Positions 13,150-38,781 of a DNA stretch of 64,000 nt are shown here, piece by piece. The DNA is from a virus (Duplodnaviria; Caudoviricetes). The DNA lies in IMG/VR virus record IMGVR_UViG_3300020036_009879, positions 9,651 through 73,650 of that record; one strand, 5' to 3'. A program made the position numbers and the translations under genes. A model generated the notes under the pieces. It searched no databases, was not told the origin of the DNA, and saw only the letters and a list, made by a program, of their open reading frames with translations. Position 1 is the first letter of the stretch; every line of letters starts with the position of its first letter.

Positions 13150-13218
13150 AAAAGGGTATGGGATTCGAACCCATATAAACAGGGGCCAGCTGTTCTATAA
13201 CCATTCTAGCAACCCTTT
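13150..13218 (-). tRNA. tRNA-like gene with U73 (Cys/Gly-like body) and shortened, altered anticodon arm (loop CTGGCCC)
   Basis: Acceptor AAAGGGT/ACCCTTT, T-arm ATGGG-TTCGAAT-CCCAT, D-loop GAATGGTTA; anticodon arm one bp short. Confidence 0.65.
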
Positions 13219-13336
13219 AAATCTATAGTCAATAATAACTTTATTTCGTATTGATTAGTAATTATATTACACTAAAGTATGTACCTATGATTTCAAGGAC
13301 TGAGCGTTAGTATAATGATTTAATATGTCAAAGAAC

Positions 13337-13555
13337 TTATGCTAAAGCTGGAACTTTAGCTGTATCAATGTAGATAGCTTGTACTATTCCTAGTCTTTTT
13401 ACAACGTGAAAAGTTGCTGTTAGAAAAGTGTAGGTTTCATTTTCTACATAATAGTTTTCGTTGTCTTCTTTTACCAGTACTCCTGCTGATACTAGGTCAG
13501 CGTATTGAGTAGCTAAGTTTTGTAGTAAAAATAATTTTAGTGTTGCTGCTGCCAT
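13337..13555 (-). CDS. Hypothetical protein, 72 aa
   Basis: ORF track; between tRNA genes. Confidence 0.55.
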   Translation of the reverse strand: MAAATLKLFLLQNLATQYADLVSAGVLVKEDNENYYVENETYTFLTATFHVVKRLGIVQAIYIDTAKVPALA

Positions 13556-13587
13556 CTCTTGTTTTTGTTTTAGTTAATAATGTTTCG

Positions 13588-13663
13588 GACTGATAGTAAG
13601 ACTCGAACCTACGGCTTCTACTCCTCACAAAGTAGCACTCTAACCAACTGAGTTATATCTGTC
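13588..13663 (-). tRNA. tRNA-His(GUG)-like with G-1:C73 pair and 8-nt anticodon loop
   Basis: G-ACAGATA/TATCAGT-C extended acceptor (A3.A70 mismatch), D-arm ACTC/GAGT, anticodon arm CTACT-TTGTGAGG-AGTAG, T-arm GTAGG-TTCGAGT-CTTAC. Confidence 0.75.
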
Positions 13664-13666
13664 ATA

Positions 13667-13699
13667 TACAAAAGCCTCTGTTAAATAGAGGCTTTTGTA
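13667..13699 (-). terminator. Intrinsic terminator
   Basis: tacaaaagcctct-gttaaat-agaggcttttgta perfect 13-bp stem. Confidence 0.75.
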
Positions 13700-13715
13700 T
13701 TTGTTTGAAAATTAC

Positions 13716-14092
13716 CTAACTAGTATCTGGGATCTTTTTGTATTGTATATTCATTTCCTGACTACACCTTCGTTCTTGTATTCGACAGTAGTCAGTGATT
13801 GAATTTTTCGGCAACAAGGAGTGCATGGTATATAATATAGTTTTCTTAGAAACCAATCCTACATCAATCGATGCTGTGTAAAAAGGTTTTTGAAAATCTA
13901 CATTTTTAACTACAGCTACCTCATTTGAGAAAACTGAAAACATTTGTACTACTTGTAGTTGACTAACCTGAGTAGTAACACCCATAGTTAATTCTACTTT
14001 TTGTTTTTGCTCCAGTTTGGCTGTAGTTTTGGCCGTGACTGCTAAACCATCATCCCGATGATTAAAATGAAGAGCGAACGAATTGACTTCAT
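13716..14092 (-). pseudogene. Signal-peptide-bearing hypothetical protein split by 1-nt deletion near 14044-14046
   Basis: MKSIRSLFILIIGMMV then stop; adding one T gives LAVTAKTTAKLEQKQKVELT in frame with the 13716..13985 ORF. Confidence 0.6.
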
Positions 14093-14119
14093 AATTTTAG
14101 ATATTTTTAGTTATTAATA

Positions 14120-14629
14120 TTAGTTCGATGCCCTAAATTCTTTTCCTCCAAAGGTTCTTATTCTTGGGGTTAAGTTATCAGGTTTTACTTCTTTGTCATT
14201 TGGGGTCTCAGATTCTAGAAACTCAAATACTTCTTTCATAAAGCTTTCTGCAATGGCTGCATGTTCATTTGAAACATTTGCTGTAACAGCTTTATCTGAA
14301 GCTTCTTTGTCGATGATGAAACCACTATCAGTAAATGTTCCAGGAAACATTCTTAATAATCGTGAGTAAGTAAAGTAACATAAAGCTGGAACTACTAACT
14401 CTCTTAAAGCTAAGTCAGCTTCAGAAGGAGCTGGGTCTCTATTAACGGGGTCTATACATCTGTCTACATTTGCCTTCCCTATCAGTCTTTTGAGGTCTAA
14501 TTGTTGAACAACTAGTTCTGCAGCTTGGATTTTAGATGGGTCAATATCAGGTTGAATAGAACAATAGTCAATTAAAGCTTGAGCTATATTAACTACTATT
14601 AGTTTCTGGGTATTGTTTGAGTTATACAT
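14120..14629 (-). CDS. Probable head-tail adaptor/head completion protein
   Basis: Directly downstream of portal; QQLDLKRLIG...LVVPALCYFTYSR pattern. Confidence 0.55.
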   Translation of the reverse strand: MYNSNNTQKLIVVNIAQALIDYCSIQPDIDPSKIQAAELVVQQLDLKRLIGKANVDRCIDPVNRDPAPSEADLALRELVVPALCYFTYSRLLRMFPGTFTDSGFIIDKEASDKAVTANVSNEHAAIAESFMKEVFEFLESETPNDKEVKPDNLTPRIRTFGGKEFRASN

Positions 14630-14632
14630 AGC

Positions 14633-16408
14633 TTATTTTTCTTTAATAGTTACTTCATTACCATTTTTTGAAACTACTTCCCACTTAGTATTAGTCTTAA
14701 ACAATACTTCTTTCTCATGTGACATACCTGAAATTTTAGAAATATCTTTTCCATTTTTATGTTCTTCAATTTTGAATACTACAGAACTGTCTGAAGGTCC
14801 TTGATTCTTAGAACTAAACTTGTTTGCTCTTGACTCGTCTTTTGTTGTTGAAGTAAAACCTTTAAAAGTTAATTCTTCTCCAGGTTTCATAGATTCCAAT
14901 TGACTAGTAGGCATATTCACTCCTCTATACAGTGTACCTTCTTTATCAGTAGGTAGTTTTGAAAGACTGTTATTTAGATTACTGATATACTTTTCATCAA
15001 CACTATTTGTAGTACCATCTCTGATTGCATAGTTCACATCAAAACCTCTTTCTGTAAAACTAATTATAGTCTTTTCTTCAGGAGTACTTCCCTTTTCAGT
15101 TGTATAGTTTTCATTTAAACTAGCTTCATTATAGTCACTTTGACTTACTGAGCTACTTTCTGATGAACCAGAACCAGGGTTTGGCCCACTTCCAGGACCA
15201 CCCATTACTAACTTACTAATTTTCTTAAGAAGTTTTTTCTTACCAGTTCCTTTAGAAACAGGTTTTACTGGAACTGGTTCTTCATCAAGTGTAAGTTTTT
15301 GTAATCTAATCTCTTTGACTGGAAAGACTGAACTTTTTAAAACCCTGTTAACACAACTCTCAATAGTATCTCTACCATTTTGAGTAATTGCATTAAAGAC
15401 AAAATAAGCTTCTTTTAAATCAGCTGAACTAAAACCAGTTTTTTGGTCTGCTCCTGCTAAGATAGGTGGGATAAGATAAGCTCCTGTGATTACTCTGTGA
15501 CATAGTTCGTAGCCTTTAGTACAACTTTCAACTACAGATGTGGAAGCTGATGCTCCACTACCTATTTCTTCAAGTACTGTATGTTCCATCTCTTCAGGGG
15601 ATAGTCCTGTCATTGTAATGATTTTTCCACTTCCTCTAGCTCCTTGGGCATCTTCAATAGATTTCTCTAGAGCTTCCAGGTTTGGGTCTTCTGCACTTAA
15701 CATAGTTTTTAGTACATAGGAATTGATAAAGCCAGTGGCAGTTTCTTTTCTCATTAAAATACTATTTTCTATATCAGCAAGTACAAAATTGATTGGGGCT
15801 TGTAATGTAGGGATAGGGTAACTACTCCCTCCAGCTTCTGAGTGATAGAGTACTTGTCCATTGTAGTTAGCTATTAATCCCTCTTTACTTTTTTTAATCT
15901 GTTCTAGTACGATGTCTGGATTGAATCTATCAATCCACTTTATCTTCCCTTTCGTAACTGTGTTTTTAACTGTTCTAGTGACCACTGCATTGTAGCCAAA
16001 ATCTGAATGGTATCCAAGTTTTGATGCTTTATTCAGTTCGTCAAATTCATTAAACCTTAAGTCAGTAATTCTAATTGGGTCTATTGTAGCCACTTCACCT
16101 TTTAAGTTATAGTTACTGTGAATACCTAAGGCATCAAAGTGAGCATAATCATCAGCTAGTATTGCTACCAATCCTTTTAGAGTCATTCCAGTAGAAGATA
16201 TGATAGTATCTTCACCTTCAAATTTTGACCCTTTATAAAACTTTATAGTTCTATTTACAGCTGATTTGGCTGCTGGTGATTGGTCAATTAGGTTTCTTAA
16301 AGTTTGTGGGAAGCTATTATTAGTCCCCCACTTCATTATTCCTAATGCCGTATCTTGTTTAGTTTCTACTTGTGTAACTTCTCTGTGGTCTTGTAGTTTG
16401 AATCCCAT
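14633..16408 (-). CDS. Portal protein with C-terminal ADP-ribosyltransferase domain
   Basis: N-term KWGTNNSFPQ...DQSP portal-like pattern; GGPGSGPNPGSG linker; ART motifs TLYRG, GFTSTT, HEKEVLF. Confidence 0.75.
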   Translation of the reverse strand: MGFKLQDHREVTQVETKQDTALGIMKWGTNNSFPQTLRNLIDQSPAAKSAVNRTIKFYKGSKFEGEDTIISSTGMTLKGLVAILADDYAHFDALGIHSNYNLKGEVATIDPIRITDLRFNEFDELNKASKLGYHSDFGYNAVVTRTVKNTVTKGKIKWIDRFNPDIVLEQIKKSKEGLIANYNGQVLYHSEAGGSSYPIPTLQAPINFVLADIENSILMRKETATGFINSYVLKTMLSAEDPNLEALEKSIEDAQGARGSGKIITMTGLSPEEMEHTVLEEIGSGASASTSVVESCTKGYELCHRVITGAYLIPPILAGADQKTGFSSADLKEAYFVFNAITQNGRDTIESCVNRVLKSSVFPVKEIRLQKLTLDEEPVPVKPVSKGTGKKKLLKKISKLVMGGPGSGPNPGSGSSESSSVSQSDYNEASLNENYTTEKGSTPEEKTIISFTERGFDVNYAIRDGTTNSVDEKYISNLNNSLSKLPTDKEGTLYRGVNMPTSQLESMKPGEELTFKGFTSTTKDESRANKFSSKNQGPSDSSVVFKIEEHKNGKDISKISGMSHEKEVLFKTNTKWEVVSKNGNEVTIKEK

Positions 16409-16629
16409 AGTGTTTTAAAAATTTAAACTGGGAATTCCAGTTGGTTAATACTTTGCTCTGAGTGAGTGATTGAACCTCTACTGTCTAGAATTAAATTCTT
16501 CCAGGACTCAGTAAGTTTTGAACAATATAAGACTAACTTGTAAAAGTTGACTTGTTCCTGTTCAGAAATTATTCATAACTTAGTTTGAAGATAAGAGGTG
16601 AAAAAAGAAATTTAAAAACCCCGTTTTCT

Positions 16630-16654
16630 TCATATAGTATGGAGCGTGAATTTT
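16630..16654 (-). promoter_or_regulatory. Candidate phage-RNAP promoter AAAATTCACGCTCCATACTATATGA
   Basis: Four copies (16630, 17026, 61678, 62070); CTATAT-GAAG end resembles SP6 CACTATA-GAAG; points at portal gene. Confidence 0.5.
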
Positions 16655-17025
16655 CAGTTTCTAACTTCTTTAAAATCAAGGGTTTAGATTTCAGGGTTTG
16701 AATTGGATTTCAGGCCCGGTTTTACTCTATGAATTAGAGAGTTTTTGTATCACGTACGTACACGTAAGATATATTTTAATATATACTTCGTATATGGGGT
16801 CAAAGCAAGATAAAAGCAAGATAAAAAACCTCTAAGTCAGGAGAGAGAGTTAAAAGATATATTAAAAACAGTACTAAAAACTATATACTGTAGAAAAAAT
16901 CTCTGAACTTTCTCTCCTAACACAGGAAATTCCTGGTCAGTATGAGAGTAGTCAAAACTTTTATTTTTTAAAGTGGAAAAAAGGAAAACAAAAAATACCA
17001 CCGAAAAATCAAAACCGTTGTTCTT

Positions 17026-17050
17026 TCATATAGTATGGACCGTGAATTTT
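17026..17050 (-). promoter_or_regulatory. Second copy of candidate phage-RNAP promoter
   Basis: tcatatagtatggaccgtgaatttt, one mismatch to consensus. Confidence 0.5.
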
Positions 17051-17071
17051 TATCAATGTTTATGGGGTATT

Positions 17072-17362
17072 TCATTTACACCAAGAACCATCTTTTTCTT
17101 TAATAGAAGCAATGTTACAACCAGGGTGTTTACACTTATAGTACTTAGCATCTTTTATATAGTCAGTATTAAGATAAAGAGGGTTATCATAATCAAACTT
17201 ACACTTATGTTTGATAAAACCAGATTTAAAGTCTGACCAAGACTTTTTATCAGTACCCCAAGACAAGAACCAGATAGGGCTAATTAAGATAATTAGTACC
17301 CATGAACAAATAGTTTGTATTACTTTCATAGCTATTAAAATTAGTTCTAAGGTGTCTATCAT
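17072..17362 (-). CDS. Hypothetical membrane protein with Cys/His motif
   Basis: Hydrophobic N-terminus; HKC...CKHPGC. Confidence 0.55.
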   Translation of the reverse strand: MIDTLELILIAMKVIQTICSWVLIILISPIWFLSWGTDKKSWSDFKSGFIKHKCKFDYDNPLYLNTDYIKDAKYYKCKHPGCNIASIKEKDGSWCK

Positions 17363-17435
17363 AGTTTCTAATGGTTAGACACCTTAGGGTGTTATAATTA
17401 TATTCATCAAATAAAATCTATCCTTAGCTACTTGA

Positions 17436-19745
17436 TTAACTGAAGAACCATTCTGAGGACTTAACAAGTTCTAAATCTAATGTCTTACCACTTTTGTTTA
17501 GATTTGGAATAGTAATTCCTTCTAATAGTTTCAAGTTAGGTTTAGTTTTTTCTATCTGTTCTCTTAGTTCAGTGTCTAAGGCTTTTAGAGGTTCACTTTT
17601 CATTAGATTAATGAATTCTTCTTTAGTTAGTTCTAATAACTTATCAACATGATTTGGAAGACAACCAAAAGAGTCATGTATCCAATCAGTATCAACTATA
17701 CCTTCTTGTACTGTCTTTAATAAAACTCTTCTTAGTAATTCAGCATCTAAAGAGTGAACAAAATTAGGACTGATAGCTGATTTCATTTTTCTAGGTGAGA
17801 TTTCATTTAAGTATCTTTTTTTAAGAAGAGTTGTTACTTTTCTTGAACCTGGTAAAAGACAACTAATCTGAGTACCTTGTCCTTCTTTCTTCTTCACATG
17901 TACTACATAGAATCCATCAGAGGTGTTCCAGGTAGTTGGTTTGTTAGACTTAGTAAGGATAGCACTCATCTTATGAATGTATGTTTCAAAAGCCTTCCCT
18001 CCATGTAGAACTCCTACAATAGATTGTCCAATAATTTTAGAGAATAAAGCTGCATTAGATTTAGTTATAAAACTTCTATCAATCTTAAGTTCTCTTAAAA
18101 TGTCCCAAACCAGTTCTGACCTCCCTCCTTCTGTTCCTCCATAGTTTGATACCATTACAGGAGTTTTACAAACTTTTCTACCTTTTTCAGTTAATAGGTC
18201 TCTAAAGAGTTCTAGTTCTTCTTTTCTGTCTACATTAGTACCTTTAAGTAGAGAGTTGGTAATTACTAAAGCTTTCTTTGCAACTAGTAGATAGGCATCT
18301 TGTCTGTCCTGTACCCCTTTTTTAATAGTTGGTGTTACATTAGTAGCTAAACAACCATCAAGGTCATTAGTCATAGCTGATGTAAACTGGCTACCTGAAT
18401 TACAAGCATCTAAGTGGACTCTGCCTTTGAATTCATAGTTTGGATTTTCATAGAATTTTCTAAGTTCTAGTTGATGTGCTAAGAACTGAAAAGGTTCTTC
18501 TGCCTTTCTCCAATCTTCATCAAGTAAGATTTTCCCTCTTTCAACTCTTTCACTGAATGAAATCTTATCTTCTCCAAATAAAGAAGTTAAGTAGGCTAAA
18601 GCCCATTCTACTCCTCTATCAGTTAAAACTTCTCCATCTCTGTATTCTAACATTGCTTTAATAGTGTCAGAACCTTGTGGTGATAAGCCTACTGGTATTG
18701 GATAAACTCGTCCTCTAAAGTCATAGGAGTGAGGGAAGTAGATTTCATCATAGTCTTGGTATAGTTCAGCTATCTCTAATGCTAGTTTGATTGCTCTGTA
18801 CTTACCTACCTCTGATTCATAATCACTTTTCTCAGCTCTATAGATTTCAGCTTCTTTGAAGTAAGTTTGTTTAAGTAGAAGATTCTCTTCTTTCTCCTTT
18901 TCAGACAATTTATCTTCATCTAGGACCCAAATTGATTCATCTATCTGTGGGTACTCAACTTTTACAAAATCTTCAATGTTAGGGAATGAAAGTTCTTCTT
19001 TGATAATTTTCACCATCTCTTTGTTCACCTTCCATGGTACACTTTGTATGTGATTAATTGTCTTGAAGATATTTTCAGAATACTTTTCATAATCTACTTT
19101 CCCTCTAAATCTAACTAGTTGGTACTGATAAGTCTTATAACCTCCTACTAAACCATTTTCATCATCGTAAGACCAATCAACAGGTCTTTCTATCATTGGT
19201 TCTGGAAAGAAAGCATAACAAGAAAGTGTAGTTAATTGTTCTTTAATTTTTGAAGGTAGATTACATTGATAGTGTATTCTGGTCTGTATAACTCCACCCA
19301 CTTTTTCTTTGACTGACTTAGAGGTTAAGAATTGACAATTATCAACTAGTATTTCAATAAACCTCCAAGTAGATTCAAAACTTAATTTTTTGAAAATCTT
19401 CTCCTGGACAGTAACTACATTTGAATATCTAGATACTGTTGAACCTTTTGTAGATATGATTAAGATAGAGGATGTTAATAGTAAAAGTGTTTCAGTAGTT
19501 TTTAGTAGAATCTCTTCTTCACTACAGAAGGTTTCTAGTAATTCATCAATGTAAGTACATCTAAGACTAGAATTAATCCACTTTTGTATAGTAGGTGTTA
19601 ACCTAATAGACTCTTCTAATATAAGCTTTTGTCCTGTTTGTGATTGAGTAACTGTTCTTGAATTCTGGCTTTTAGAGTAGATATCTTTCCAGATTCTATC
19701 TTCACCCTTTAGTTTCATTTGTAGTTCATTAGAAACTTGATTCAT
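17436..19745 (-). CDS. Single-subunit T3/T7-like DNA-directed RNA polymerase
   Basis: DFRGRVYP, motif A HLDACNSGSQF, motif B RKVCKTPVMVSNYGG, PNFVHSLDA, motif C IHDSFG. Confidence 0.93.
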   Translation of the reverse strand: MNQVSNELQMKLKGEDRIWKDIYSKSQNSRTVTQSQTGQKLILEESIRLTPTIQKWINSSLRCTYIDELLETFCSEEEILLKTTETLLLLTSSILIISTKGSTVSRYSNVVTVQEKIFKKLSFESTWRFIEILVDNCQFLTSKSVKEKVGGVIQTRIHYQCNLPSKIKEQLTTLSCYAFFPEPMIERPVDWSYDDENGLVGGYKTYQYQLVRFRGKVDYEKYSENIFKTINHIQSVPWKVNKEMVKIIKEELSFPNIEDFVKVEYPQIDESIWVLDEDKLSEKEKEENLLLKQTYFKEAEIYRAEKSDYESEVGKYRAIKLALEIAELYQDYDEIYFPHSYDFRGRVYPIPVGLSPQGSDTIKAMLEYRDGEVLTDRGVEWALAYLTSLFGEDKISFSERVERGKILLDEDWRKAEEPFQFLAHQLELRKFYENPNYEFKGRVHLDACNSGSQFTSAMTNDLDGCLATNVTPTIKKGVQDRQDAYLLVAKKALVITNSLLKGTNVDRKEELELFRDLLTEKGRKVCKTPVMVSNYGGTEGGRSELVWDILRELKIDRSFITKSNAALFSKIIGQSIVGVLHGGKAFETYIHKMSAILTKSNKPTTWNTSDGFYVVHVKKKEGQGTQISCLLPGSRKVTTLLKKRYLNEISPRKMKSAISPNFVHSLDAELLRRVLLKTVQEGIVDTDWIHDSFGCLPNHVDKLLELTKEEFINLMKSEPLKALDTELREQIEKTKPNLKLLEGITIPNLNKSGKTLDLELVKSSEWFFS

Positions 19746-20201: not shown

Positions 20202-20211
20202 AATATTTGTG

Positions 20212-20266
20212 TTTTTAAATTTCTATGGGATAAAATTAAAGTAAAAGAATCTAATAAAAAACTTTT
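20212..20266 (-). promoter_or_regulatory. Promoter cassette (TACTTTAATTTTATCCCATAG core)
   Basis: Same core at 29460, 35245, 39140, 45365, 59380. Confidence 0.7.
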
Positions 20267-23524: not shown

Positions 23525-24124
23525 TATTCTATATAGTATTCAAAATTAGTATTATTTTTACTCTTACCTTTTAACTTATCACTAAGTCCACCTGAATCAT
23601 GACTTATTGATTCTGCTGCTAATTTAACTGAATCAAAGATTTCTTTTGTTTCAGTATTAATAACTTTCTTCCAGGTCTTTTTATTCCTTAGTAATCTTTC
23701 TTTTTTTGTTAAACTATCCCATACTCTTTTAATACTATTTTTATTTCTAAGTTTTTGTTCTTCTTTTTGTTCTTCAGTTAGATTTAGTTTATGTCTTAGT
23801 TGACCTTCACTATTCCTTTTTCTTGTCTCTTTAGAATGAACTCCACTTTTATCACTAGTTTCAGTAAGTTTCAAATTAAGTCCGTTAGGTCCTAAGACAT
23901 CATAAAAGTCTTGATAGTGCCTTTCTCTTTCGTTTAAAAGTGAGATTTCACATTCTTCAAGAATTTCAAAAGTATGATTTTCAAAACCGTGTTTCAAAAA
24001 AGAACTTCTTAAGTTTGCCTATATGACAATCAATTCTGTGTTGTTTCCAACGAAACTTAATATCAACACTCTGACCGATATAAATTTTACTAGTCGGAGA
24101 TATGATTTTGTAAATTCCAATCGT
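23524..24124 (-). pseudogene. GIY-YIG homing endonuclease pseudogene (ACG in place of ATG, +1 frameshift near 24000)
   Basis: Upstream frame reads IGIYKIISPTSKIYIGQSVD, nearly identical to 60458..61165, then shifts into the 23524..23997 ORF. Confidence 0.8.
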
Positions 24125-24125: not shown

Positions 24126-27100
24126 TTAACTACAAGCTGAGTATCCACAAGAAGAACACTTAAGACAACCTTCTGTCATAATGATTTTTTTCTCTTTACA
24201 CTCTGGACACTCAATTCCACCTTCTTTAGAATAGCTTTGTAAAACTTTAGCTATCACTTGATGAAATGAGTTAATTGTAGCGAACTTGAATATTGTTTCA
24301 GCAACGAATCCAGGTTCAACTCTGTGTCTAAGAAGTGAACTTAACATCCTAGTAGAATTCTGTTCATTCTCAATCATATAGTCACTAAGACTTTGAACTA
24401 GAACTTCTCCACCTGTTGACATTAAAGTATAGACCCCTTTACCCTGTTTGACTATTACAGCTTGTTTGAGTTTCTTGGATAACTTGTTCTCTCCACTGTT
24501 TGGAATAGCAAATACTTCATAAGGTCTATCATCTAACTTACCAATAAAGATAGCAAAATCATTACCTCTAGAGGTTTTAAAGAAGACATCACATTCAAGT
24601 TCAGAAGGTCTCTTAGTTGAATGGTTATACTCAAACTCCTCTTTCTTATTTAAGACAGAAGTAGTAGAAAGTACATTTCCTCTAGAATTATCTCTATAAA
24701 CAGTTACTCCTTTACAACCTGAATCAAAAGCCATCTGATAGACATCTTTCACCATCTGTTCAGTTACAGATTCTGGCATATTTACAGTTACAGAAATAGA
24801 GTGGTCTACCCATTTTTGAATAAACCCTTGCATCCTAACTTTCTCTACATAATCAACATCTGTTGAGGTGGCACCAAAATAAGGAGACTTTTCAAAAATC
24901 TCTTTTAGTTCACTCTCTTTCAAGGCAGCTAAAATAGATTCAGCTTTTTCAAAAAGAATACCTGTTGCACCAGCATAAAAATCAATGAAAGTTCTTTGGA
25001 AGACTGGAAACTCAACCCACTTGTCTCCAACTTCATCAACATAGTCAAACTCTAGTTCACCAGTAACCTTTTTCTTTCTAAAGTACCAAGGGTAAAACAT
25101 TGGTTCAACTCCACTAGTAGTTCGTGTAAGAAGTGATACTGAACCAGCTGGTGCTATTGTCAATATAGCAATATTACGTCTACCAATTGATTTGGCTCTA
25201 TCAATTAACTCTTGTGTCATTAGTTCATTTTCTTCTAAACTAAATAGTCTAGTTAAGAAACCACTAGATTCAATATCTCTATTATTCCAAAGTGGGAAAG
25301 CTCCTCTTTCTTCTGCTAATTCAATAGAGGCTTCATAGGCTGTAGTAGCTAATAATTGATGTAGTTTTTCAGCAAATTCTGTACCTCCTGATGTACCATA
25401 CTTGATACCAAGTGCTGCCATCATATCACCTTCACCTGTAACTCCTAGTCCTGTTCTTCTTCCTTCTACAGCTTTTTTACGAATCTTTAACCAAAGTTCT
25501 TTTTCTACTTGTTGGTAAGTTTCTTCAAATCTCTTCTCTTCAATCTCCTCTAAGATAGCATCAATTTTTTCAATTTCAAGGTCTACAACATCATCCATTA
25601 ATCTCATTGCAAACCCTACATGTTTGGTAAACAATGTATCTTCGAACATTGAATTAGACTGAAATTTATTTGAAACATATCCATACAAGTTTAAAAGAAG
25701 TAGTCTACAAGAATCAAACGGAGGTAAAGGAATTTCACCACAATTGGCTGATTTAATTGAAGAACCCAATCTCTCTTTCTTGGCAGTCCACCCATCAAAG
25801 TTTCCTACAAAGTAGTTATGGTACTGTTCTACTACCCCATTATAAACATCTTCTATTCCATCTTCTACAATAGATTTTACTGTAAACAAAGGAAGTTTTC
25901 CAAAGATTTCAGAATCACGGTTTAGTAAACCAGAACCTTTAGAAGTTTTGTACCTAGAAACAGTACGTAATTGGTCTCCTTTTTTAAGTTGGTCTAATTC
26001 TACTTTCAAACCACTCTTTAGATAGAACTGGTGTTTTTCTGTAGCTCTAACGAACTCTCCATCTGAGAAAGTTACTTTAAAGATTCTTTGTTTTTCAGCA
26101 ACAACAGTTGGAGCTGTCATCTTTTTGATAACAATCACCTTACTTTCACTTTCACTGTAAACTAATACGTCTTTACCTTCTTCAGCTAATTCACGGAAAG
26201 ATACATACCCTCTACCATCAGCTACAGCAACTAAAGTGTCTCCTGTGAAACAAGGGTTAGTTCCTTTTTCTTCCCAATCGGCGCCATAGAATCTACAAGG
26301 AGACTCATTAATGATTTGGTCCCAAAACAAGATACCTGGTTCAGCTGACTTCCAAGCATTGTGACAAAGTTTGTCCCAAATTCTTTGAGGGTCTACTTTT
26401 TTGTAATAGGTTTTTTGACCATTGATTGTCTTACCAGGATAGAGTTTATCGTATTCAAATAGGCTCTCTAAAGTAATTTCACCGTTAGAGTCTTGAAGAA
26501 TGTCAAGATAATCTTCAGTTAAAATTTCATCAAGAGTTTTGTCAATAGGGAATGTTTGATAGAAGTCTTTCTTCTCCATAATACACTTCATGAACTCCTT
26601 GGTAATTTTTACAGAAACATTAGCTCCTGTAACTGAACCTGGAGTCATCTTCTTGTCAATAAACTTCTCAGAATCTGGGTGATGAATACTTACTGATAAC
26701 ATAAGTGCTCCACGTCTCCCATCTTGTTGAACTTCTCTAGTAGAGTTTGAATAACGGTCCATGTATAAAGACATACCACAAGACTGTCCTAAGGGAACAT
26801 TTCCAGCCATAGCTCCTGATGGTCTTAAGTGTGAAAGGTCTTGACCTACTCCACCTCTTCTTTTCATTAACTGAACTTGTTCTTCATCAGCCTTCATAAT
26901 TCCTCCATAAGAATCAGGATGGTTTCCAATCAAGAAACAATTTGAAATACTCGTGTTTGTAAATGGGTTTCCTATTCCAGCCATTGGAGAACCTTGCGGA
27001 ACTATATAGTTGAAATCTTTTAGTAATTGATAAATCTCTTCTTCAGAAAGAGGGTTTGGGTACCTAGACTCAATTCTAGCAAACTCTTTTGCTATCCTTC

Positions 27101-27284
27101 TATGCATCATATCAGGATTCAATTCATAGTATTCAGTAACTTCACCAATTTTTTTCTTCAAAGAGTATTTGTCAATCCAAACTACTGTAGCTAAAGTATC
27201 TCCTCCAAAATACTCTAGTGTTGACTTTTCAACTTCCTCTCTAAGATAAACTGTTCTTTCATGTGAGTCTTTTACAATCTTCAT
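24126..27284 (-). CDS. nrdJ: Class II (B12-dependent) ribonucleotide reductase with intein
   Basis: SNCF, RRGA, NP/CGE catalytic site, RRTGLG, TIAPAGS, SVTVN, GVTVYRD; C-terminal zinc ribbon. Confidence 0.9.
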   Translation of the reverse strand: MKIVKDSHERTVYLREEVEKSTLEYFGGDTLATVVWIDKYSLKKKIGEVTEYYELNPDMMHRRIAKEFARIESRYPNPLSEEEIYQLLKDFNYIVPQGSPMAGIGNPFTNTSISNCFLIGNHPDSYGGIMKADEEQVQLMKRRGGVGQDLSHLRPSGAMAGNVPLGQSCGMSLYMDRYSNSTREVQQDGRRGALMLSVSIHHPDSEKFIDKKMTPGSVTGANVSVKITKEFMKCIMEKKDFYQTFPIDKTLDEILTEDYLDILQDSNGEITLESLFEYDKLYPGKTINGQKTYYKKVDPQRIWDKLCHNAWKSAEPGILFWDQIINESPCRFYGADWEEKGTNPCFTGDTLVAVADGRGYVSFRELAEEGKDVLVYSESESKVIVIKKMTAPTVVAEKQRIFKVTFSDGEFVRATEKHQFYLKSGLKVELDQLKKGDQLRTVSRYKTSKGSGLLNRDSEIFGKLPLFTVKSIVEDGIEDVYNGVVEQYHNYFVGNFDGWTAKKERLGSSIKSANCGEIPLPPFDSCRLLLLNLYGYVSNKFQSNSMFEDTLFTKHVGFAMRLMDDVVDLEIEKIDAILEEIEEKRFEETYQQVEKELWLKIRKKAVEGRRTGLGVTGEGDMMAALGIKYGTSGGTEFAEKLHQLLATTAYEASIELAEERGAFPLWNNRDIESSGFLTRLFSLEENELMTQELIDRAKSIGRRNIAILTIAPAGSVSLLTRTTSGVEPMFYPWYFRKKKVTGELEFDYVDEVGDKWVEFPVFQRTFIDFYAGATGILFEKAESILAALKESELKEIFEKSPYFGATSTDVDYVEKVRMQGFIQKWVDHSISVTVNMPESVTEQMVKDVYQMAFDSGCKGVTVYRDNSRGNVLSTTSVLNKKEEFEYNHSTKRPSELECDVFFKTSRGNDFAIFIGKLDDRPYEVFAIPNSGENKLSKKLKQAVIVKQGKGVYTLMSTGGEVLVQSLSDYMIENEQNSTRMLSSLLRHRVEPGFVAETIFKFATINSFHQVIAKVLQSYSKEGGIECPECKEKKIIMTEGCLKCSSCGYSACS
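25743..26252 (-). mobile_element. Mini-intein (170 aa) in RNR at NP/CGE
   Basis: Begins CFTGDT, block B RATEKHQF, ends SAN followed by Cys; no endonuclease domain. Confidence 0.9.
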
Positions 27285-27706: not shown

Positions 27707-27780
27707 TTACTGAGACAGGACTCGAACCTGTGCTTACCATCATTAAAATGATGAGCTCTAGCCAACTGAGCTACCCAGCA
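27707..27780 (-). tRNA. tRNA-Lys(UUU)-like with 6-nt anticodon loop
   Basis: TGCTGGG/CTCAGTA acceptor, GCTC/GAGC D-stem, CATCA-TTTTAA-TGATG, ACAGG-TTCGAGT-CCTGT. Confidence 0.75.
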
Positions 27781-27835
27781 CCTTAGATTTTAATCTTTCT
27801 CCTCCCTTAAAATCTAATAAATGTGGAGGTATTAC

Positions 27836-28762
27836 TTACTCTTCTTCTCTGGTTTCTTCTTCACAGTCTCCAAAAACTTTGTCTATAAGACTATTCAAGT
27901 AAGAACTTGTGAAAGATTCAGGATTTACTCCTCTGATAATTTCAATCAAAGTTGAGAAATAGGCAACATCAACTCCAATCAATTGCTCTTCTAATACTTC
28001 AACGTTTTTTAAATCAAGCTCACTAATTTGGAACATAATTTTGAGAATCTCTCCTGCATTAATTGTCCAACCTCTATTCAAGAATTTCTTCATTCTGATG
28101 ATAGAGGTAAGTGGATATAGACTACCTTGGTATTTCAAAGTTTTAGTCAAAATTGATTCTAAAGCATCAACGTTTGTAACTAACCCTTCTTGAAAAGTGA
28201 AGTAGTTAGTGGCGTGGATAAAGTCAAAGGTTTTGTGAATCTGTTCAGAGTTACCATGAAATCTAAGAACGATTTGTAAATCATCAGTAAGTGAAATAGC
28301 ATTCTGTGATAAGAAGGCAACTTGGAATTTAGCTGGTTCTTTACCTTCTTCACATAAAAGGTCTACTTTTCTACCTTGTGACTCAATATCTAGTTTAACC
28401 TGGTCTTCTTTTAAAGTCAATAATCTAACTAGAAGTTCAGGAGAATAGGGTTCATCAGAATCTTTTAGATAAGGTTGTGATGGGTGATATTTTGGAAAAC
28501 GGTTTTTGATGTATTCGTCTTTCTTTCTACCATCAAGAACAATTCCTGGACAATAGTATTTTGCTAATTTAATTAAGACATCCATATCTTGAATATAGAC
28601 ATCATAATCATTAACAGGTTGTCCTTGGAATAGTGATGTGATTGAACCACCTGATACAAGAATGTTTTTTCTAACTTCTTGTCTTAAGACTATGTCTTCA
28701 ATTGTACTTAACCAACCATCTAGTTTTCTTACAATTACTTTTTTAATCGTTTTTCTTTGCAT
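27836..28762 (-). CDS. Putative nucleotidyltransferase (poly(A) polymerase/CCA head-like)
   Basis: VSGGSITSL...VNDYDVY and TFDF motifs. Confidence 0.55.
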   Translation of the reverse strand: MQRKTIKKVIVRKLDGWLSTIEDIVLRQEVRKNILVSGGSITSLFQGQPVNDYDVYIQDMDVLIKLAKYYCPGIVLDGRKKDEYIKNRFPKYHPSQPYLKDSDEPYSPELLVRLLTLKEDQVKLDIESQGRKVDLLCEEGKEPAKFQVAFLSQNAISLTDDLQIVLRFHGNSEQIHKTFDFIHATNYFTFQEGLVTNVDALESILTKTLKYQGSLYPLTSIIRMKKFLNRGWTINAGEILKIMFQISELDLKNVEVLEEQLIGVDVAYFSTLIEIIRGVNPESFTSSYLNSLIDKVFGDCEEETREEE

Positions 28763-29445: not shown

Positions 29446-29633
29446 ATTGTTTTAAATTTCTATGGGATAAAATTAAAGTATTTCTACCTATAAAAAAACT
29501 TTTATTACAATTATTTTTAAAAAAGTTTTAAGACCTTAAAACAATAGTTCTAAGGCCTTAAAATTTTCCATCAATATAAGAATACCTGAAGGTAGGTCAA
29601 AGGTGTTAAGACACCCTGATGTGGTTTCTAGAA
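29446..29633 (-). promoter_or_regulatory. ~185-bp repeated promoter/stem-loop cassette
   Basis: Near-identical to 35232, 39128, 45348; contains inverted repeat ttttaagacctta...taaggccttaaaa. Confidence 0.85.
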
Positions 29634-32502: not shown

Positions 32503-32567
32503 AGTTAAAGAGCATTACAAAAATATTAAAGACTAGAATAAAGATTAAAATTATTTTCCACATAGTT

Positions 32568-32789: not shown

Positions 32790-32790
32790 A

Positions 32791-33162
32791 CTACCATCTG
32801 TAATTTGGTCCTCTCATTCTTATAGGAGAATCTACTATACACTGATTTTGTCCAAATCTTTCTAGAAATCTATGAACTTCTTCTACAGTTTGATTATCAA
32901 ATCTATAAAACTTTACAATATTCTCTACTCCTCTTTTTCTCATTACAAGTACAATAGAAGGGTCTTTAATATTAATATCAGCAACTACAGTGAAGTCTTT
33001 ATTGATAAACTTTACATGTTCAATTATCTCTCTATAGTCTCTATGGATATGAAACATTCTTTCAGACTGATGTTTAAGTTGTGTTTTTAGCTGTTCATTT
33101 TCACGTTTTAGTTCAGTGATACCTAGAACTTCTTGAATCCAAATTTTTAGTCTACTTTTCAT
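32791..33162 (-). CDS. Hypothetical protein
   Basis: ORF track; overlaps ligase stop. Confidence 0.6.
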   Translation of the reverse strand: MKSRLKIWIQEVLGITELKRENEQLKTQLKHQSERMFHIHRDYREIIEHVKFINKDFTVVADINIKDPSIVLVMRKRGVENIVKFYRFDNQTVEEVHRFLERFGQNQCIVDSPIRMRGPNYRW

Positions 33163-34231
33163 CTCTCCAGTTTTTAAAGAAAGCGTGTCTTGGGAAATCT
33201 TTCACTGGAACCATTGCTGTGTAAGTAAAATGTCTACCAATGTAGTTTTCTTTGTTAATAAGTAGTTCTCTCTTAGCTTCATTATCAAACCCATTTAAAC
33301 CAACAATGAACTCACCAAGGTTAGTTCCATCTTCTTTTGTATAAGATACTAGAAACCCTTTTGCTAAACCTGATAGTTCACGGTCATCTTTCTTTTTAGA
33401 GGTTTCTGAGTAACCGAGTTTGTCAACAGTGGTTTCAATACCTTCTTTGATAGAAGTTCCTTCTAATACATTTAGAACTACAGCATCGTATTCTAGGGCA
33501 TCATCTTTCATTTTTAGAAGAGTTCCTTGTGTAAGACTGTTTCTTCCAAACTTGTATTCATGATTTCTATGAGTAAGTACTAATCCTTCATAACCTTCTT
33601 CTAAAGCTTCTTCATACAAATCTTGTAGTCTTTCTTTTGAGACAACCATATATGGAGGAGTCATTTCAATATAGATATTTTTAATCAATCCAGACTCTTT
33701 CATTCTTTTTCTGATTTCTGACATTCTTTCTTCATAACCTACTAAGTCAGTTCTATCAAGAACAAGTCCATCAAAAATGTGGATTTGTAGTTCAAGGTGA
33801 AAGTTAGTTAAAAAATCAATACTTAGACTATCATAGTCTTTTCTGAATTTTTCTGGGTCTTTTCTAAAAGCTTTAACTAATTCAGTATGATAATCAATAG
33901 ACTCAACATTCTCCTTAGTAAAGAATCTAAAGATTGAATTGAACTTGATTCCATGCATATAGAATTCTCCATCAACAGCAATGTTAAGTCTTTTCAGCTC
34001 TATTGCTATATCCTGAAATCTTTCAATCACTAATTTACTTCCTGGAACTTTTAAAGCTCTTGAAAGAACCAATCCATCAAGTAATTGTAGTCTAACTCCA
34101 TCTTTTTTCTTGTTGATGTAGTACTGGTCATAATCTCCGTTTTTCATAATGACTTTGTCTAAATCAAATGAACCATCTTTAGGGTTATTAGGAATCAGGT
34201 TTGGACGGAAAACTTTTAAAAGTGTACTCAT
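33152..34231 (-). CDS. ATP-dependent DNA ligase
   Basis: KKDGVR adenylation motif, VDGEFY, FDG, YEGLVL, LLKMK. Confidence 0.88.
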   Translation of the reverse strand: MSTLLKVFRPNLIPNNPKDGSFDLDKVIMKNGDYDQYYINKKKDGVRLQLLDGLVLSRALKVPGSKLVIERFQDIAIELKRLNIAVDGEFYMHGIKFNSIFRFFTKENVESIDYHTELVKAFRKDPEKFRKDYDSLSIDFLTNFHLELQIHIFDGLVLDRTDLVGYEERMSEIRKRMKESGLIKNIYIEMTPPYMVVSKERLQDLYEEALEEGYEGLVLTHRNHEYKFGRNSLTQGTLLKMKDDALEYDAVVLNVLEGTSIKEGIETTVDKLGYSETSKKKDDRELSGLAKGFLVSYTKEDGTNLGEFIVGLNGFDNEAKRELLINKENYIGRHFTYTAMVPVKDFPRHAFFKNWRDEK

Positions 34232-34232
34232 A

Positions 34233-34397
34233 CTATTCTTTGTTATATTTTTTCTTTAGCTTATTATTAGATGCTCTTTCATCTTTTTCACCCTTAGAAT
34301 AAAAGTCAGATTTATTTAGTCTGTGTCCTGTAATAGGGTGAATACTATGATTCCAAAACTGTTTAAGTTGTCCAGGTGTTACTTTAATTTGTTTCAT
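34233..34397 (-). CDS. Small basic hypothetical protein, 54 aa
   Basis: Manual translation fills the gap between neighbours. Confidence 0.5.
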   Translation of the reverse strand: MKQIKVTPGQLKQFWNHSIHPITGHRLNKSDFYSKGEKDERASNNKLKKKYNKE

Positions 34398-34398
34398 T

Positions 34399-35228
34399 TT
34401 AGATTACTTTTACTCTCTGTATAATAGTTTGTTTTACTCCTTTATATTCTTCATGTTTGATAGTAGCTTTAATTTTTGTAAACCCTTCTTCATTAAAACA
34501 AGGAGAAGTAGTTCCTTTGTAGATGTACTCATTACCTTCTAAGTCATTATAGGTAACTATACTTACATATCCATACATTGAATCATATCCAGCTCTTCTA
34601 ACTTCTTTAAGTTCTAGGCCTACTCTTTCTTTTTCAGTATGAAGGAAGAAACTATTTTGAACTTTAATTTTGTAGTCATAGTCTCTTTTTGTGATATAAC
34701 TTAAATTAACATTAAGTATCCACTCCCCTAGTCTATCATCCCATTTATCACCTACGTGTTTGAATTTAACAATTTCACCTAGTTCAATTAATCTTCTTCT
34801 AGCAAGAACTCTTCTTCTAAGTGGTTTTGAAGTGTTAAATTCTTTTGGGTGTCCAATAGCTCCTGGTCCTGAAAGTACTCTATTTAGTTGCCAAACATCA
34901 TCAGTCTCTAGAATATTTACCATCTGTAATTTTCCAAAAGGGAATACAGTATAAGGGAACATCATTCTTTCAGTTTTAGTAAAAGATGATGTTTGTCCTC
35001 TTAGACTTTCATCAATCTCTGGCTTAAGTTTATATTTTTTTTAAACTTTATAATAGCTTCACTTTCTGACTTTGAAAGATTTTGTATATATGTATACTTC
35101 CAGTCTGTATAGACGTGAGTTCTTACATTATTTATTACTTCAAATCTTCTAATTTCAGTTAGACTCCATAAAGTAAAGTACTCTGTTGCAAATCCAATTA
35201 GCTTTGTATTTTTAGCTTCTACTGACAT
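34399..35228 (-). pseudogene. One ~276-aa gene split by a frameshift in an A8 run (35035-35042)
   Basis: One extra A joins ...AIIKFKK to KYKLKPEIDESLRGQTSSFTKTERMMFPY, bridging both ORF-track fragments with no stop. Confidence 0.65.
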
Positions 35229-35231
35229 AAT

Positions 35232-35399
35232 AATTGTTTTTTAAATTTCTATGGGATAAAATTAAAGTATTTTCTCCTTATAAAAAACTTTTATTACAAT
35301 TATTTTTAAAAAGTTTTAAGACCTTAAAATAATGGTTCTAAGGCCTTAAAAAATTCAAGCAATATAAGAATACCTGAAGGTAGGTCAAAGGTGTTAAAA
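35232..35399 (-). promoter_or_regulatory. Repeated promoter/stem-loop cassette
   Basis: Near-identical to 29446 and 39128. Confidence 0.85.
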
Positions 35400-35411
35400 C
35401 CGTTTCAAAAC

Positions 35412-35999
35412 CTAAGCTACATACCTTCTATAACGATAAACACAGATTAAAAAACTATCTGTCTTATTATCATCAATATTTTTAGAACGAGGTGTTCTTT
35501 TGAAATCTAGTGTAGGAGCTAAGTCCTGAGCTACTATGGCTGATGTTGCCTTGGTGTCATGTACCATCGTCTTGCCTGTTGATGAAGGTACTTTCACTTT
35601 TTCATAACCTTGGTAGATATAAGACTGCCACTTTTGAGGTCTTACTAGTTCAATCTCTGCTTTCAACATTATGAGTAACATCATTTGGAGTCCTGCTGTG
35701 TGTCCGAAATTAAAGTTGTTTTCTGCTGACCAACCTTGTCTCCCTCCAACTTCTTCTATGGCAGCTATAAACTGACAGTTTGGATACTTCTTGTGTATTT
35801 CAAAAACCAGTCCTCTAAACCCTTCAGTGTGAAACTCTGTTTTCATTTCAGGTTTTCCTGATTTCAATATAGTACCAGTTTCTATTTTGTGTTCTGGCAT
35901 TGAGTAAAAATCATACTCATCAACTGTTGGGTCATAAATAGTAATAAACCCTGACTTACCAGGGTCTACTCCTAAAAAAATTTTTTTCTTTTCACTCAT
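35412..35999 (-). CDS. RuvC-like Holliday junction resolvase
   Basis: LGVDPGKSG, AIEEV, F.FG, VRPQKWQ, DNKTDS. Confidence 0.75.
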   Translation of the reverse strand: MSEKKKIFLGVDPGKSGFITIYDPTVDEYDFYSMPEHKIETGTILKSGKPEMKTEFHTEGFRGLVFEIHKKYPNCQFIAAIEEVGGRQGWSAENNFNFGHTAGLQMMLLIMLKAEIELVRPQKWQSYIYQGYEKVKVPSSTGKTMVHDTKATSAIVAQDLAPTLDFKRTPRSKNIDDNKTDSFLICVYRYRRYVA

Positions 36000-36006
36000 T
36001 TATTTA

Positions 36007-38199
36007 TTATTTAATGTATGAAATCCCGTTTTCTTTAACTAGTGTTAAAACATCACTACTTTCTTTAAGTGCAATGTGAGTAATAAGTAGAACAGGAATT
36101 GATAACAATTTAGCTGATTCAATAAGACTTACTATACCAGCTGAGTCTACACCTTCAAACACCTCATCAATAGCTAAGAAATCTAGTCCTCCATAAGGGT
36201 GAGTTTCATTTATCATGAAACGATTAGCTAAGATTGAACTAAATAGTAGACGTCCTCTTTCTCCTCCACTGAAGGATGAAAAAGTCCTTTCAATATTACG
36301 TATAATAATAGCATTAATCTCCTCTTTGATAGTTCCATCAGCTTTTACTTTGAATCCTTCAATTTTAACTACAAGGTCTGAGTTCATTCCTTGTAAGTAT
36401 CTATTACAATGGTACTCCATTACTCCTAATGATTTATTAGCTAAGTACATTCTAAACTGTTTAAAGTTTTGAATCCAAAGCTTTTTATTAGTAAGTTCTG
36501 TTTCTTTTTGTAACAGATTTAACTGGTGTGTTGAAAGTTGTTTTTTGTACATTACTAAGTCATCTTCAAGCTTTTTGATTAGTTCAGTATTAATAGACAC
36601 TTCAAGAGTCTTTTTACTTTCTTCGATTAGAGTAATCTCTTTTTCTTTTAGCTTGATTTCACTCTTAACATTTTTGACTTGAACATCTACTTGTTTTAAC
36701 TCTTCTTCAAGTGTAACAATATCAGCTATTCTCTTCTTTTCAGTTAGTTCAAGACTCTTTAGTTTCAAGTTCTCACTATCAAGTTTTGTTTGGATTTCAT
36801 TTAGACTTTTGGTACACTGGTTTAAAGATACTGAAAGTTTATTCTTATCTTCATTTGACTGTTTCTCTTCACTATTGATTGAAGAAATGTTAGTCTCTAG
36901 CTCCTGAATAGTTTTTGAAACTGAATCAATGAATCCTTGTTGTTCTTCTACAGAAATAAAAGACTTTTCTTTTAGTTCTAGTGCCCCCTTTTTCTTAGTT
37001 TTCAAAGTTTCAAGGTCACCATCTAAGATGAATTCATGTTGACAATTAGGACAAACTATAGCTCCACCAAGCTTTACCTCTAATCCTTGTATAAAAGTAA
37101 GTACCTTAGTATACAAAGTATCTTTCTCTTTTTTAGCTACCTTCAGTAATTCTAACTTTTCCTTTTCAGTTAACTTATCTTTTTCAAGTAAGTCTCTTTT
37201 TGATTTGAAGTCAATATCTTTAAACTTATCTAGCAAATCTTTTGCTGACTGTACAGATTTTGAACTAATCTGTAGTTCTGTACTTATCTTTTGGATACTG
37301 GTTTCAATCTCAACTTTCTTAGTAGAGTTAGCTTTTTCTTCTAACTTGAGTTCATCAATACGCTTTTGAGTAATAGGTTTAGAAGATTCTTTAGTTTTAA
37401 TACTGTTCTCAAGAGTAACAATACTAAGTCTAACTTCCTCAATCTCTTCATCTAACTCTTCAGTTTTTTCTTCTAACTCTAACTCTAAATCTCTCTCTTG
37501 TTCAGTTTTTAAGTTTTCTTCTGTCAACTCAATCTTACCTACAACAGTTCCAGCTAGTGTTCTGAGTCCACTTATCTGTTCATCAAGTTCAGTAGTATCA
37601 ATCTCTTCAAGTCCTTGTACTATACTAGCATCTGAAAATCGATTAATAAGAGCAACCTTCTCAGTATTAGAAGATTTGAAAAAGGATTTGAAACGGGTAT
37701 TGTTAATAATGAAGTAATTAAATAAGTCTTCTTTTGAAATAGCAAACCAGTCTGAGATTTTGTTCTTCCCATCATTTACACTAGAAAAACTAACAGGTTC
37801 CCAACTTTCAGAGCCATACTTTTGAATCTTGAGTCTTAGAGTATTTGAATCTTTAAGATTGATAGACCAGTCTATATGTAGTCTTTCTTTACGATAGTCA
37901 CAACTGGCGAATAATTGTATATTGGCTTGTTTTTTACCATACGTTATGAGTTCAGAGTCATTTACTCCTCTACTATTTGAAGCTGTGATACACTGTTCTA
38001 TTCCTGTTTGTAAACCAGATTTTCCTGTACCATTAGTTTCTTGTTCGTCATCAGTTAAGTTTATTCCTTGTACAAGTAAAGGTTTAGCTTCAAATGAATA
38101 GTCAAGTTCATCAAAACTTAAAAAGTCTTTTAATATTAGTCTGTCTAGTCTCATAGTTATAAATTTAAGTACACTATACTTAGTAAAAAAACTATCCAA
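36007..38199 (-). CDS. SbcC/Rad50-like recombination ATPase
   Basis: NGTGKS, coiled coil with CPNC hook, FSGGE, LAIDEVF, LITH. Confidence 0.88.
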   Translation of the reverse strand: MDSFFTKYSVLKFITMRLDRLILKDFLSFDELDYSFEAKPLLVQGINLTDDEQETNGTGKSGLQTGIEQCITASNSRGVNDSELITYGKKQANIQLFASCDYRKERLHIDWSINLKDSNTLRLKIQKYGSESWEPVSFSSVNDGKNKISDWFAISKEDLFNYFIINNTRFKSFFKSSNTEKVALINRFSDASIVQGLEEIDTTELDEQISGLRTLAGTVVGKIELTEENLKTEQERDLELELEEKTEELDEEIEEVRLSIVTLENSIKTKESSKPITQKRIDELKLEEKANSTKKVEIETSIQKISTELQISSKSVQSAKDLLDKFKDIDFKSKRDLLEKDKLTEKEKLELLKVAKKEKDTLYTKVLTFIQGLEVKLGGAIVCPNCQHEFILDGDLETLKTKKKGALELKEKSFISVEEQQGFIDSVSKTIQELETNISSINSEEKQSNEDKNKLSVSLNQCTKSLNEIQTKLDSENLKLKSLELTEKKRIADIVTLEEELKQVDVQVKNVKSEIKLKEKEITLIEESKKTLEVSINTELIKKLEDDLVMYKKQLSTHQLNLLQKETELTNKKLWIQNFKQFRMYLANKSLGVMEYHCNRYLQGMNSDLVVKIEGFKVKADGTIKEEINAIIIRNIERTFSSFSGGERGRLLFSSILANRFMINETHPYGGLDFLAIDEVFEGVDSAGIVSLIESAKLLSIPVLLITHIALKESSDVLTLVKENGISYIK

Positions 38200-38357
38200 T
38201 ATAGATTGTAGAGTAGTAAAGTAGTATAATTAATTGAACCTATTTTACTACACCAAGAATCATCTGACTTAATAGTGTCCTTCAAAACTAATAATAGAAC
38301 TAACCCTATTAAAGGAAAGAAGAAGGCTATTTTAAGTATTATTGGAATTGTTTTCAT
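38157..38357 (-). CDS. Small membrane protein
   Basis: Two hydrophobic segments. Confidence 0.5.
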   Translation of the reverse strand: MKTIPIILKIAFFFPLIGLVLLLVLKDTIKSDDSWCSKIGSINYTTLLLYNLYWIVFLLSIVYLNL

Positions 38358-38363
38358 AATTAC

Positions 38364-38666
38364 TTAGTTAAAGTTTATTGCAGAACAAGCTGTATCACCA
38401 ATATTAATACTAGTATACTTTGTGTATGATACTGAGTAAGTTTGACCATCACTCAAAGTAACATAAAGTCTAGAAGGAGAGTAGTTTTTATCAACTCTTT
38501 TTCCAGTGACTGTAGGACAACTATACTCTTCAGAATCAGGGCTACAGCTAAACAAAGTACTTAGAAGTACTATTAATAAAACAGAAATACAAACAGTGTT
38601 TTTTACTGTTTCAATTCCTTTATCATTCTTTGCAAAGAAGATAGCTAATATGAATAATTTTTTCAT
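38364..38666 (-). CDS. Putative lipoprotein
   Basis: Hydrophobic stretch ending LLSTLFS-C. Confidence 0.5.
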   Translation of the reverse strand: MKKLFILAIFFAKNDKGIETVKNTVCISVLLIVLLSTLFSCSPDSEEYSCPTVTGKRVDKNYSPSRLYVTLSDGQTYSVSYTKYTSINIGDTACSAINFN

Positions 38667-38692
38667 AATATTTGATTTAAGTTAATGTTTTG

Positions 38693-38781
38693 TGGAGACG
38701 GCAGGAATCGAACCTGCAACCTTCAACTAGACTCCTCTGATTAGGCCTTAGTTGATGCTCTACCTATCGAGCTCCATCCCC
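38693..38781 (-). tRNA. tRNA-like RNA with Ala identity (G3.U70, A73) and 23-nt expanded anticodon loop
   Basis: GGGGATG/CGTCTCC-A, GCTC/GAGC D-stem, TCAAC/GTTGA stem with 16 extra nt, GCAGG-TTCGATT-CCTGC. Confidence 0.75.

Follow-up and report, generated by a model that had tools for sequence, protein, structure and literature searches.

Transfer RNA-shaped genes that keep their upper halves and carry remodelled anticodon arms in a flavobacterial-type phage

The stretch of DNA analysed here (the window, 64,000 nucleotides) spans bases 9651-73650 of the 73,650-bp virus record IMGVR_UViG_3300020036_009879, from a flavobacterial-type phage, and carries five transfer RNA (tRNA)-shaped genes, which are listed with their adjoining features in Table 1. 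Detection with ARAGORN and with Infernal against Rfam family RF00005 (cut-off 29 bits) places all five on the minus strand with scores of 42.9-56.3 bits, above the RF00005 gathering threshold of 29. Each displays a cloverleaf with acceptor, D and T arms, in which G18G19 and the other D-loop and T-loop elements are intact, but a 5-bp anticodon stem closing a 7-nt loop with U33 and a purine at position 37 is found in tRNA-Glu only. A preliminary description of the same letters had reported anticodon arms of 15, 18, 16 and 33 nt beside this normal tRNA-Glu, lengths that are borne out by ARAGORN, by Infernal and by reading of the sequence; the acceptor elements that it named, G-1:C73, G3.U70 (together with A73) and U73, are likewise present. 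CCA is encoded by none of the five genes, which sit in same-strand operons 8-32 nt ahead of the next open reading frame (ORF), two of them directly behind stable hairpins. Pfam and PHROG annotation of the small ORFs neighbouring the tRNA-like genes returned nothing, and metagenome scans for further orthologues found none. As judged from sequence comparison, most of these RNAs probably serve a purpose other than ordinary decoding.

Table 1. Positions in the window of the tRNA-shaped genes and of the features that adjoin or bear on them.
Feature	Position	Strand	Remarks
tRNA-Glu(UUC)	13027..13098	-	Canonical arm, 5 bp + 7 nt; 56.3 bits; internal control
U73 RNA	13150..13218	-	42.9 bits; anticodon arm 15 nt
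Conserved block directly upstream of U73 RNA	13219..13262	-	Common to G001, L082 and L001; no repeat in window
72-aa ORF	13337..13555	-	Marks the tRNA slot between structural and terminase genes in all relatives
His-type RNA	13588..13663	-	49.9 bits; anticodon arm 18 nt
16-bp hairpin	13666..13700	-	Ends 3 nt before G-1 of the His-type RNA
Conserved small gene	13716..14092	-	Broken at 14044-14046, T3 instead of T4
Lys-type RNA, Lys(UUU)	27707..27780	-	47.8 bits; anticodon arm 16 nt
Near-invariant structured element of ~50 nt	27781..27832	-	Precedes the Lys-site tRNA or tRNA-like RNA in seven lineages
308-aa gene upstream of the Lys site	27836..28762	-	PHROG 4400, unknown function
A8 run	35035..35042	-	A9 needed for frame; within conserved gene 34399-35228
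1.1-kb strain-specific insert	38200..39314	-	Between RecA-like and SbcC-like genes, which adjoin each other in G001
Ala-type RNA	38693..38781	-	50.3 bits; anticodon arm 33 nt

The U73 RNA combines a 4-bp anticodon stem with the 7-nt loop CUGGCCC, and displays a 13:22 mismatch in the D stem and a variable region of 4 nt. The family was compared in three phages: the window, its closest uncultured relative (G001) and the Logan contig L082. Next to the stem, the three phages show A-U, U-A and G.A; this position thus acts as a 26:44 pair rather than as a fifth stem pair, so that the stem is 4 bp long and the previously claimed 15-nt arm is right. Seven pairs of the family are changed on both sides and 93.7% of the cells are paired, which was equalled by none of 500 shuffles, while slid controls gave at most 2. 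The loop reads CUGAUCC in both G001 and L082 (family CUGRYCC); C37 is conserved, whereas the nominal anticodon varies between GGC and GAU. Together with the 4-bp stem, these two features make it likely that the U73 RNA is non-decoding. Anticodon stems of 6 bp are known from the Pyl, Sec and mitochondrial (mt) Ser tRNAs, 5 bp being constant otherwise (Krahn 2020, PMC7609411). The phage RNAs resemble these irregular natural tRNAs in retaining the L-shape elements despite odd dimensions of stems and loops, but a conserved 4-bp stem with C37 is absent from that review's list (PMC7609411). The U73, the 13:22 mismatch and the 4-nt variable region recall tRNA-Cys. In more distant relatives, the slot taken by the U73 RNA of the window holds tRNA-Cys(GCA) genes of 82-86 nt (L001:9639-9720, L084:3476-3557 and L086:1370-1455) with U73, the 13:22 mismatch and a long inserted variable region. 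The conserved block directly upstream is possibly a promoter or leader. A repeated phage promoter was considered for this block and for the one upstream of the Lys site and rejected, each being single-copy in the window; base-pairing between the U73 loop and the spacer that lies downstream was also rejected, as the GGCCAG motif of the window has no counterpart in G001.

The His-type RNA pairs a 5-bp anticodon stem with the 8-nt loop UUGUGAGG. The two marks of tRNA-His, G-1:C73 and a GUG anticodon, are found in both the window and G001, whose loops are each 8 nt long and differ in the last base. Comparison of three sequences (window, G001 and L082) gives 95.5% paired positions and three compensatory pairs, including the -1:73 pair, which passes from G-C to A-U. 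In L082 exactly three loop bases are absent, GUG is replaced by UGU and G-1:C73 by A-1:U73; the arm can be read either with a 5-nt loop or as a 4-bp stem carrying the canonical Thr-type loop UUUGUAA. Since the -1:73 pair and the anticodon change together, the family is argued to be charged, and this paired identity change would be more in keeping with a tRNA that is charged, and possibly decodes, than with an inert mimic. The exact anticodon-arm pattern was found in G001 only among the viral contigs scanned. Hairpins of other sequence stand upstream of the His-type RNA in G001 and L082, at the place of the 16-bp hairpin of the window. The loop carries U33-G34-U35, the motif read by tRNA-guanine transglycosylases.

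Of the sites compared, the Lys site shows most plainly that the anticodon arm varies as a module while the upper half is retained. The site is marked by the near-invariant ~50-nt element, in which one helix covaries from CCUCC/GGAGG to CUUCC/GGAAG and two helices are interleaved in a possible pseudoknot; the element has no Rfam match and is single-copy in the window. Behind it, G001 carries a normal tRNA-Lys with a 7-nt loop and the window the Lys-type RNA, with a 5-bp stem and the 6-nt loop UUUUAA. In L089 and L090, which come from two independent samples, the acceptor, D and T arms are the same and a different 5-bp stem carries the 6-nt loop CCAACA (39.5 bits). G002 and L088 keep the acceptor and T arms alone, enclosing an unrelated middle, and their acceptor pairs are improved from G.U to A-U; L087 retains a truncated stump. 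At this site the acceptor/T minihelix is kept independently of the anticodon arm, one of the two marks expected of a processing signal, the other being cleavage at the minihelix ends. Homologues of the 308-aa protein encoded upstream bear the precomputed Pfam label PF26128 (Gad2, anti-Gabija), a label that hmmscan of the protein itself, which gave no family, did not reproduce.

The Ala-type RNA displays a 5-bp stem and a 23-nt 'loop', which adds two pairs to the stem and continues as an irregular fold, forming an extended arm; G8 stands in place of U8. Its acceptor, GGGGAUG/CGUCUCC with G3.U70 and A73, has by sequence the features of a substrate of alanyl-tRNA synthetase (AlaRS). The 1.1-kb insert that holds it also contains a promoter/terminator cassette and ORFs of 112, 100 and 66 aa. 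Pattern scans of viral and genome contigs and BLAST against cultured phages yielded no homologue of the RNA, and no tRNA adjoins the homologues of the neighbouring 112-aa ORF. An antisense target for the long loop was rejected, as the window has neither a second copy nor a complement. A cassette of at least ~130 bp, whose terminator-like hairpin holds TAAGGCCTTA, recurs ahead of orphan genes at 29551, 35339, 39237 and 45460 on the minus strand. Kinship of the insert with this cassette was rejected, since the two share only an 8-mer, matched by 3-4% of shuffles or random windows. The motif TAAGGCCT occurs 12 times (1.3 expected), once within the Ala-type arm. The tRNA-like domain of transfer-messenger RNA (tmRNA) and the recognition of minihelices by AlaRS are established. 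The Ala-type RNA resembles tmRNA in its GGGG-start acceptor, G3.U70, A73, T arm and lack of a usable anticodon, but differs from it in having a full D arm and neither a tag reading frame, pseudoknots nor an Rfam tmRNA hit. A search for tmRNA gave no Rfam hit in the window at E <= 1 and none in the genome by ARAGORN. Several tRNA-like RNAs of G002, with middle arms that are short or long, have acceptors that can be read as Ala-type. The same relative carries a circularly permuted (two-piece) tmRNA (L077:1805-2153, contig 43804-44152; RF04321, 73.3 bits), whose ARAGORN tag is ENVINLFGNDVKVAA* and whose neighbours are such tRNA-like RNAs.

The window has a G+C content of 32% and its minus strand carries all genes. 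The genome encodes a T7-type RNA polymerase, portal, terminase, ribonucleotide reductase and a split DNA polymerase, and its closest cultured phages are Tenacibaculum phage Larrie and Cellulophaga phages phiST, phi19:2 and phi13:1 (RNA polymerase identity 47-49%). G001 (74.5 kb) is ~70-77% identical in DNA across most aligned segments. The majority of relatives have no tRNA at all, while one (G004; contig L075, positions 476-2476), a complete genome of 75.7 kb with terminal repeats, has 24 RF00005 hits, mostly canonical and 22 of them in a left-end block; ARAGORN calls a tRNA at 18 of these 22, each with an ordinary three-base anticodon, and a normal tRNA-His is among them. Because of this uneven distribution the tRNA-shaped genes are regarded as accessory. 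They are best explained as genuine accessory genes of tRNA origin in a phage that is related to Cellulophaga phiST and Tenacibaculum Larrie. Two slots prone to recombination, one behind the 72-aa ORF and one behind the Gad2-labelled gene, and a single strain-specific insert hold them.

Other features of the genome include the DNA polymerase gene (46457-51389, minus strand), which is divided into two ORFs by a 209-aa ORF (49002-49631) that has paralogues at ~60900-61165 and 23891-24118 and resembles a homing-endonuclease-type insertion. The region 51517-58254 (minus strand) encodes QueC, QueF, FolE, a radical-SAM QueE-like and a PTPS/QueD-like protein, all Pfam-confirmed, a set that probably serves 7-deazaguanine modification of DNA; the 264-aa ORF previously named TGT-like has no Pfam hit. 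The large subunit of ribonucleotide reductase (24126-27284, minus strand) is 1052 aa long, and its homologues in relatives bear an intein label (PF14890).

The reliability of the assembly bears directly on loop lengths. Comparison of the ORFs of relatives with the genome reveals two frame breaks in conserved genes (Table 1), each a one-base deletion inside a homopolymer and probably an assembly error, slippage being possible too at the A8 run. The warning about homopolymer indels given with the preliminary description thus holds. The Lys-type loop of the window displays T4 (27745-27748) where G001 has T5, and its 6-nt length could therefore be an error of the same kind; in view of the swapped 6-nt loop found at this site in two samples, the chance that it is real is raised to about even, a sequencing artefact being equally probable. 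In contrast, the 8-nt His-type loop is not a homopolymer error, since it recurs in an independent contig (G001) with a G-to-A substitution, and neither is the 4-bp stem of the U73 RNA, found again in two other contigs, nor the Ala-type arm, with its 16 extra bases. It is thus very improbable that assembly artefacts explain the set as a whole. Decay into functionless pseudogenes is an improbable explanation, although the truncated stump of L087, the widely varying tRNA content of relatives and the Ala-type insert, which could be a disruption, agree with it: compensatory changes hold 94-96% of pairs, and decay would strike every arm. The earlier contention that the remodelling is non-random stands in so far as the body is kept and the arm remodelled across relatives, with compensatory pairs and with length change, swap and replacement at orthologous sites; it loses force for the Lys-type RNA, which may be an artefact. 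Hardly any likelihood attaches to the His-type RNA being a four-base-codon or +1 frameshift tRNA that reads UCAC or CAYN. The extra base of its loop lies 3' of the anticodon, as in SufB2-type +1 suppressors with their 8-nt loops (PMC7803779), and ARAGORN reads the anticodon as GUGA, but the phage genes lack matching +1 sites. Both frame breaks need -1 and fall in homopolymers, and a scan of all +1 ORF junctions returned ordinary gene overlaps only, none dependent on TCAC or CAYN.

Two further explanations assign the RNAs a role in translation or in defence. That they are working decoders with unusual loops is unlikely; the His-type (and Lys) RNA would be charged, read CAY (and AAR) and replace depleted host tRNAs, its altered loop geometry making it a poor substrate for host loop-directed nucleases or modification enzymes. 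G-1:C73 and GUG are indeed conserved jointly and change jointly in L082, and natural tRNAs with 8-nt loops decode triplets, as does yeast mitochondrial tRNA-Thr1(UAG), which is of tRNA-His origin (Su 2011, PMC3113583). The parallel extends to the 8-nt loop on a His-type body and to an anticodon-loop indel coupled to gain or loss of G-1, the phage states being GUG with G-1:C73 and UGU with A-1:U73; it is limited in that tRNA-Thr1 belongs to a mitochondrial recoding with a co-evolved ThrRS, whereas in the phage RNA, a candidate for charging and decoding, the extra base lies 3' of the anticodon. Glu, Lys and His tRNAs are moreover classic targets of anticodon nucleases, and phage tRNAs with anticodon-loop changes have been proposed to escape these host enzymes (van den Berg 2023, PMC10264068; Azam 2024, PMC11555353). 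The present genes share with them the targeted types and off-norm loops, and one adjoins a gene whose homologues are labelled anti-defence (Gad2, not reproduced by hmmscan). The published cases, however, are working tRNAs with base substitutions in 7-nt loops, while here stems and loops differ in length, arms have been swapped and a number of forms are unable to decode. The 4-bp stem and C37 of the U73 RNA, the 23-nt Ala-type loop and the upper-half-only relatives would be left unexplained. The preliminary description had proposed non-decoding mimics; in the form of dedicated decoys or sponges for tRNA-targeting defences, or of aminoacyl (Ala or His) carriers in a non-ribosomal reaction, this proposal is quite unlikely. 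The invariant anticodon stems, the conserved CUGRYCC loop, the G3.U70/A73 acceptor of the Ala-type RNA and the G002 RNAs readable with Ala-type acceptors beside a permuted tmRNA agree with it. Against this, Pfam and PHROG annotation reveals no partner enzyme among the adjoining genes, the loops are unlike each other and unlike known nuclease targets (CCAACA, AGGAA), and the Ala-type RNA is an orphan. The non-decoding part of the proposal is well supported for the Lys-site family of relatives; for the U73 RNA it is likely, for the Ala-type RNA plausible, and the His-type RNA fits it less well than it would fit a charged tRNA. A related reading, in which the anticodon arm is an exchangeable module and the RNAs are dedicated non-decoding effectors such as decoys against tRNA-directed immunity, as opposed to remnants or processing signals, is unlikely, though it covers the U73 RNA with its CUGRYCC loop, the long-arm RNA with its Ala acceptor and the Lys-site variants beside the Gad2-labelled gene.

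The explanation tentatively preferred, while short of an even chance, is that selection maintains the upper half of these RNAs (acceptor stem, T arm and D/T elbow) and not a canonical anticodon arm, the upper half acting as a processing signal. In this processing-signal model, built on the observed structures, conservation, covariation, arm turnover and synteny, the RNAs would be expressed, processed and possibly charged: RNase P, RNase Z and the CCA-adding enzyme of the host would recognise elbow and acceptor and excise the RNAs from operon transcripts, and the excision would shape the ends of the flanking mRNAs. Change would be confined to the anticodon arm because selection holds the upper half only. 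Decoding would be an optional extra, retained in tRNA-Glu, in the tRNA-Lys of a relative and perhaps in the His-type RNA with a bulged 8-nt loop, and lost in the U73 and Ala-type RNAs; charging of the upper half may occur besides handling of the RNase P/Z type. The roles put forward in the preliminary description, as anticodon-nuclease decoy, aminoacyl carrier or RNase P/Z signal, are indistinguishable here from sequence, although the upper-half-only relatives would favour the processing signal. tRNA punctuation and tRNA-like processing signals are familiar from mitochondrial transcripts and from mascRNA (RF01684). The phage genes are similar in that tRNA-shaped elements lie between ORFs and that an upper half recognised by RNase P/Z suffices; they differ in that no description of such signals in phage operons was found, the proposal being made here from sequence. 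Several points weigh against selection on the upper half alone. Across three phages the T stems of the U73 and His-type RNAs vary but their anticodon stems do not, which suggests that the arm itself is read by something. In the His-type family, the -1:73 pair and the anticodon change jointly, which speaks for aminoacylation and decoding. The comparison spans 3 to 7 lineages, L087 shows that the Lys-site RNA can be lost, and, the Ala-type RNA having no homologue, selection on it is unproven.

It is common to see phage tRNA genes as an aid to codon usage or, in more recent work, as replacements for tRNAs destroyed by host immunity. At these sites the comparison reveals a different selective regime, which keeps the upper half of the tRNA intact and lets the decoding arm be dispensed with or rebuilt. 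In the His-type family, the coupled change parallels, in a virus of bacteria, the switch of tRNA-His to tRNA-Thr in yeast mitochondria. If the RNAs are decoys or altered decoders, they would offer a compact and testable case of counter-defence at the RNA level. If they are processing signals, annotation pipelines that drop 'pseudo-tRNAs' would be throwing away functional elements.

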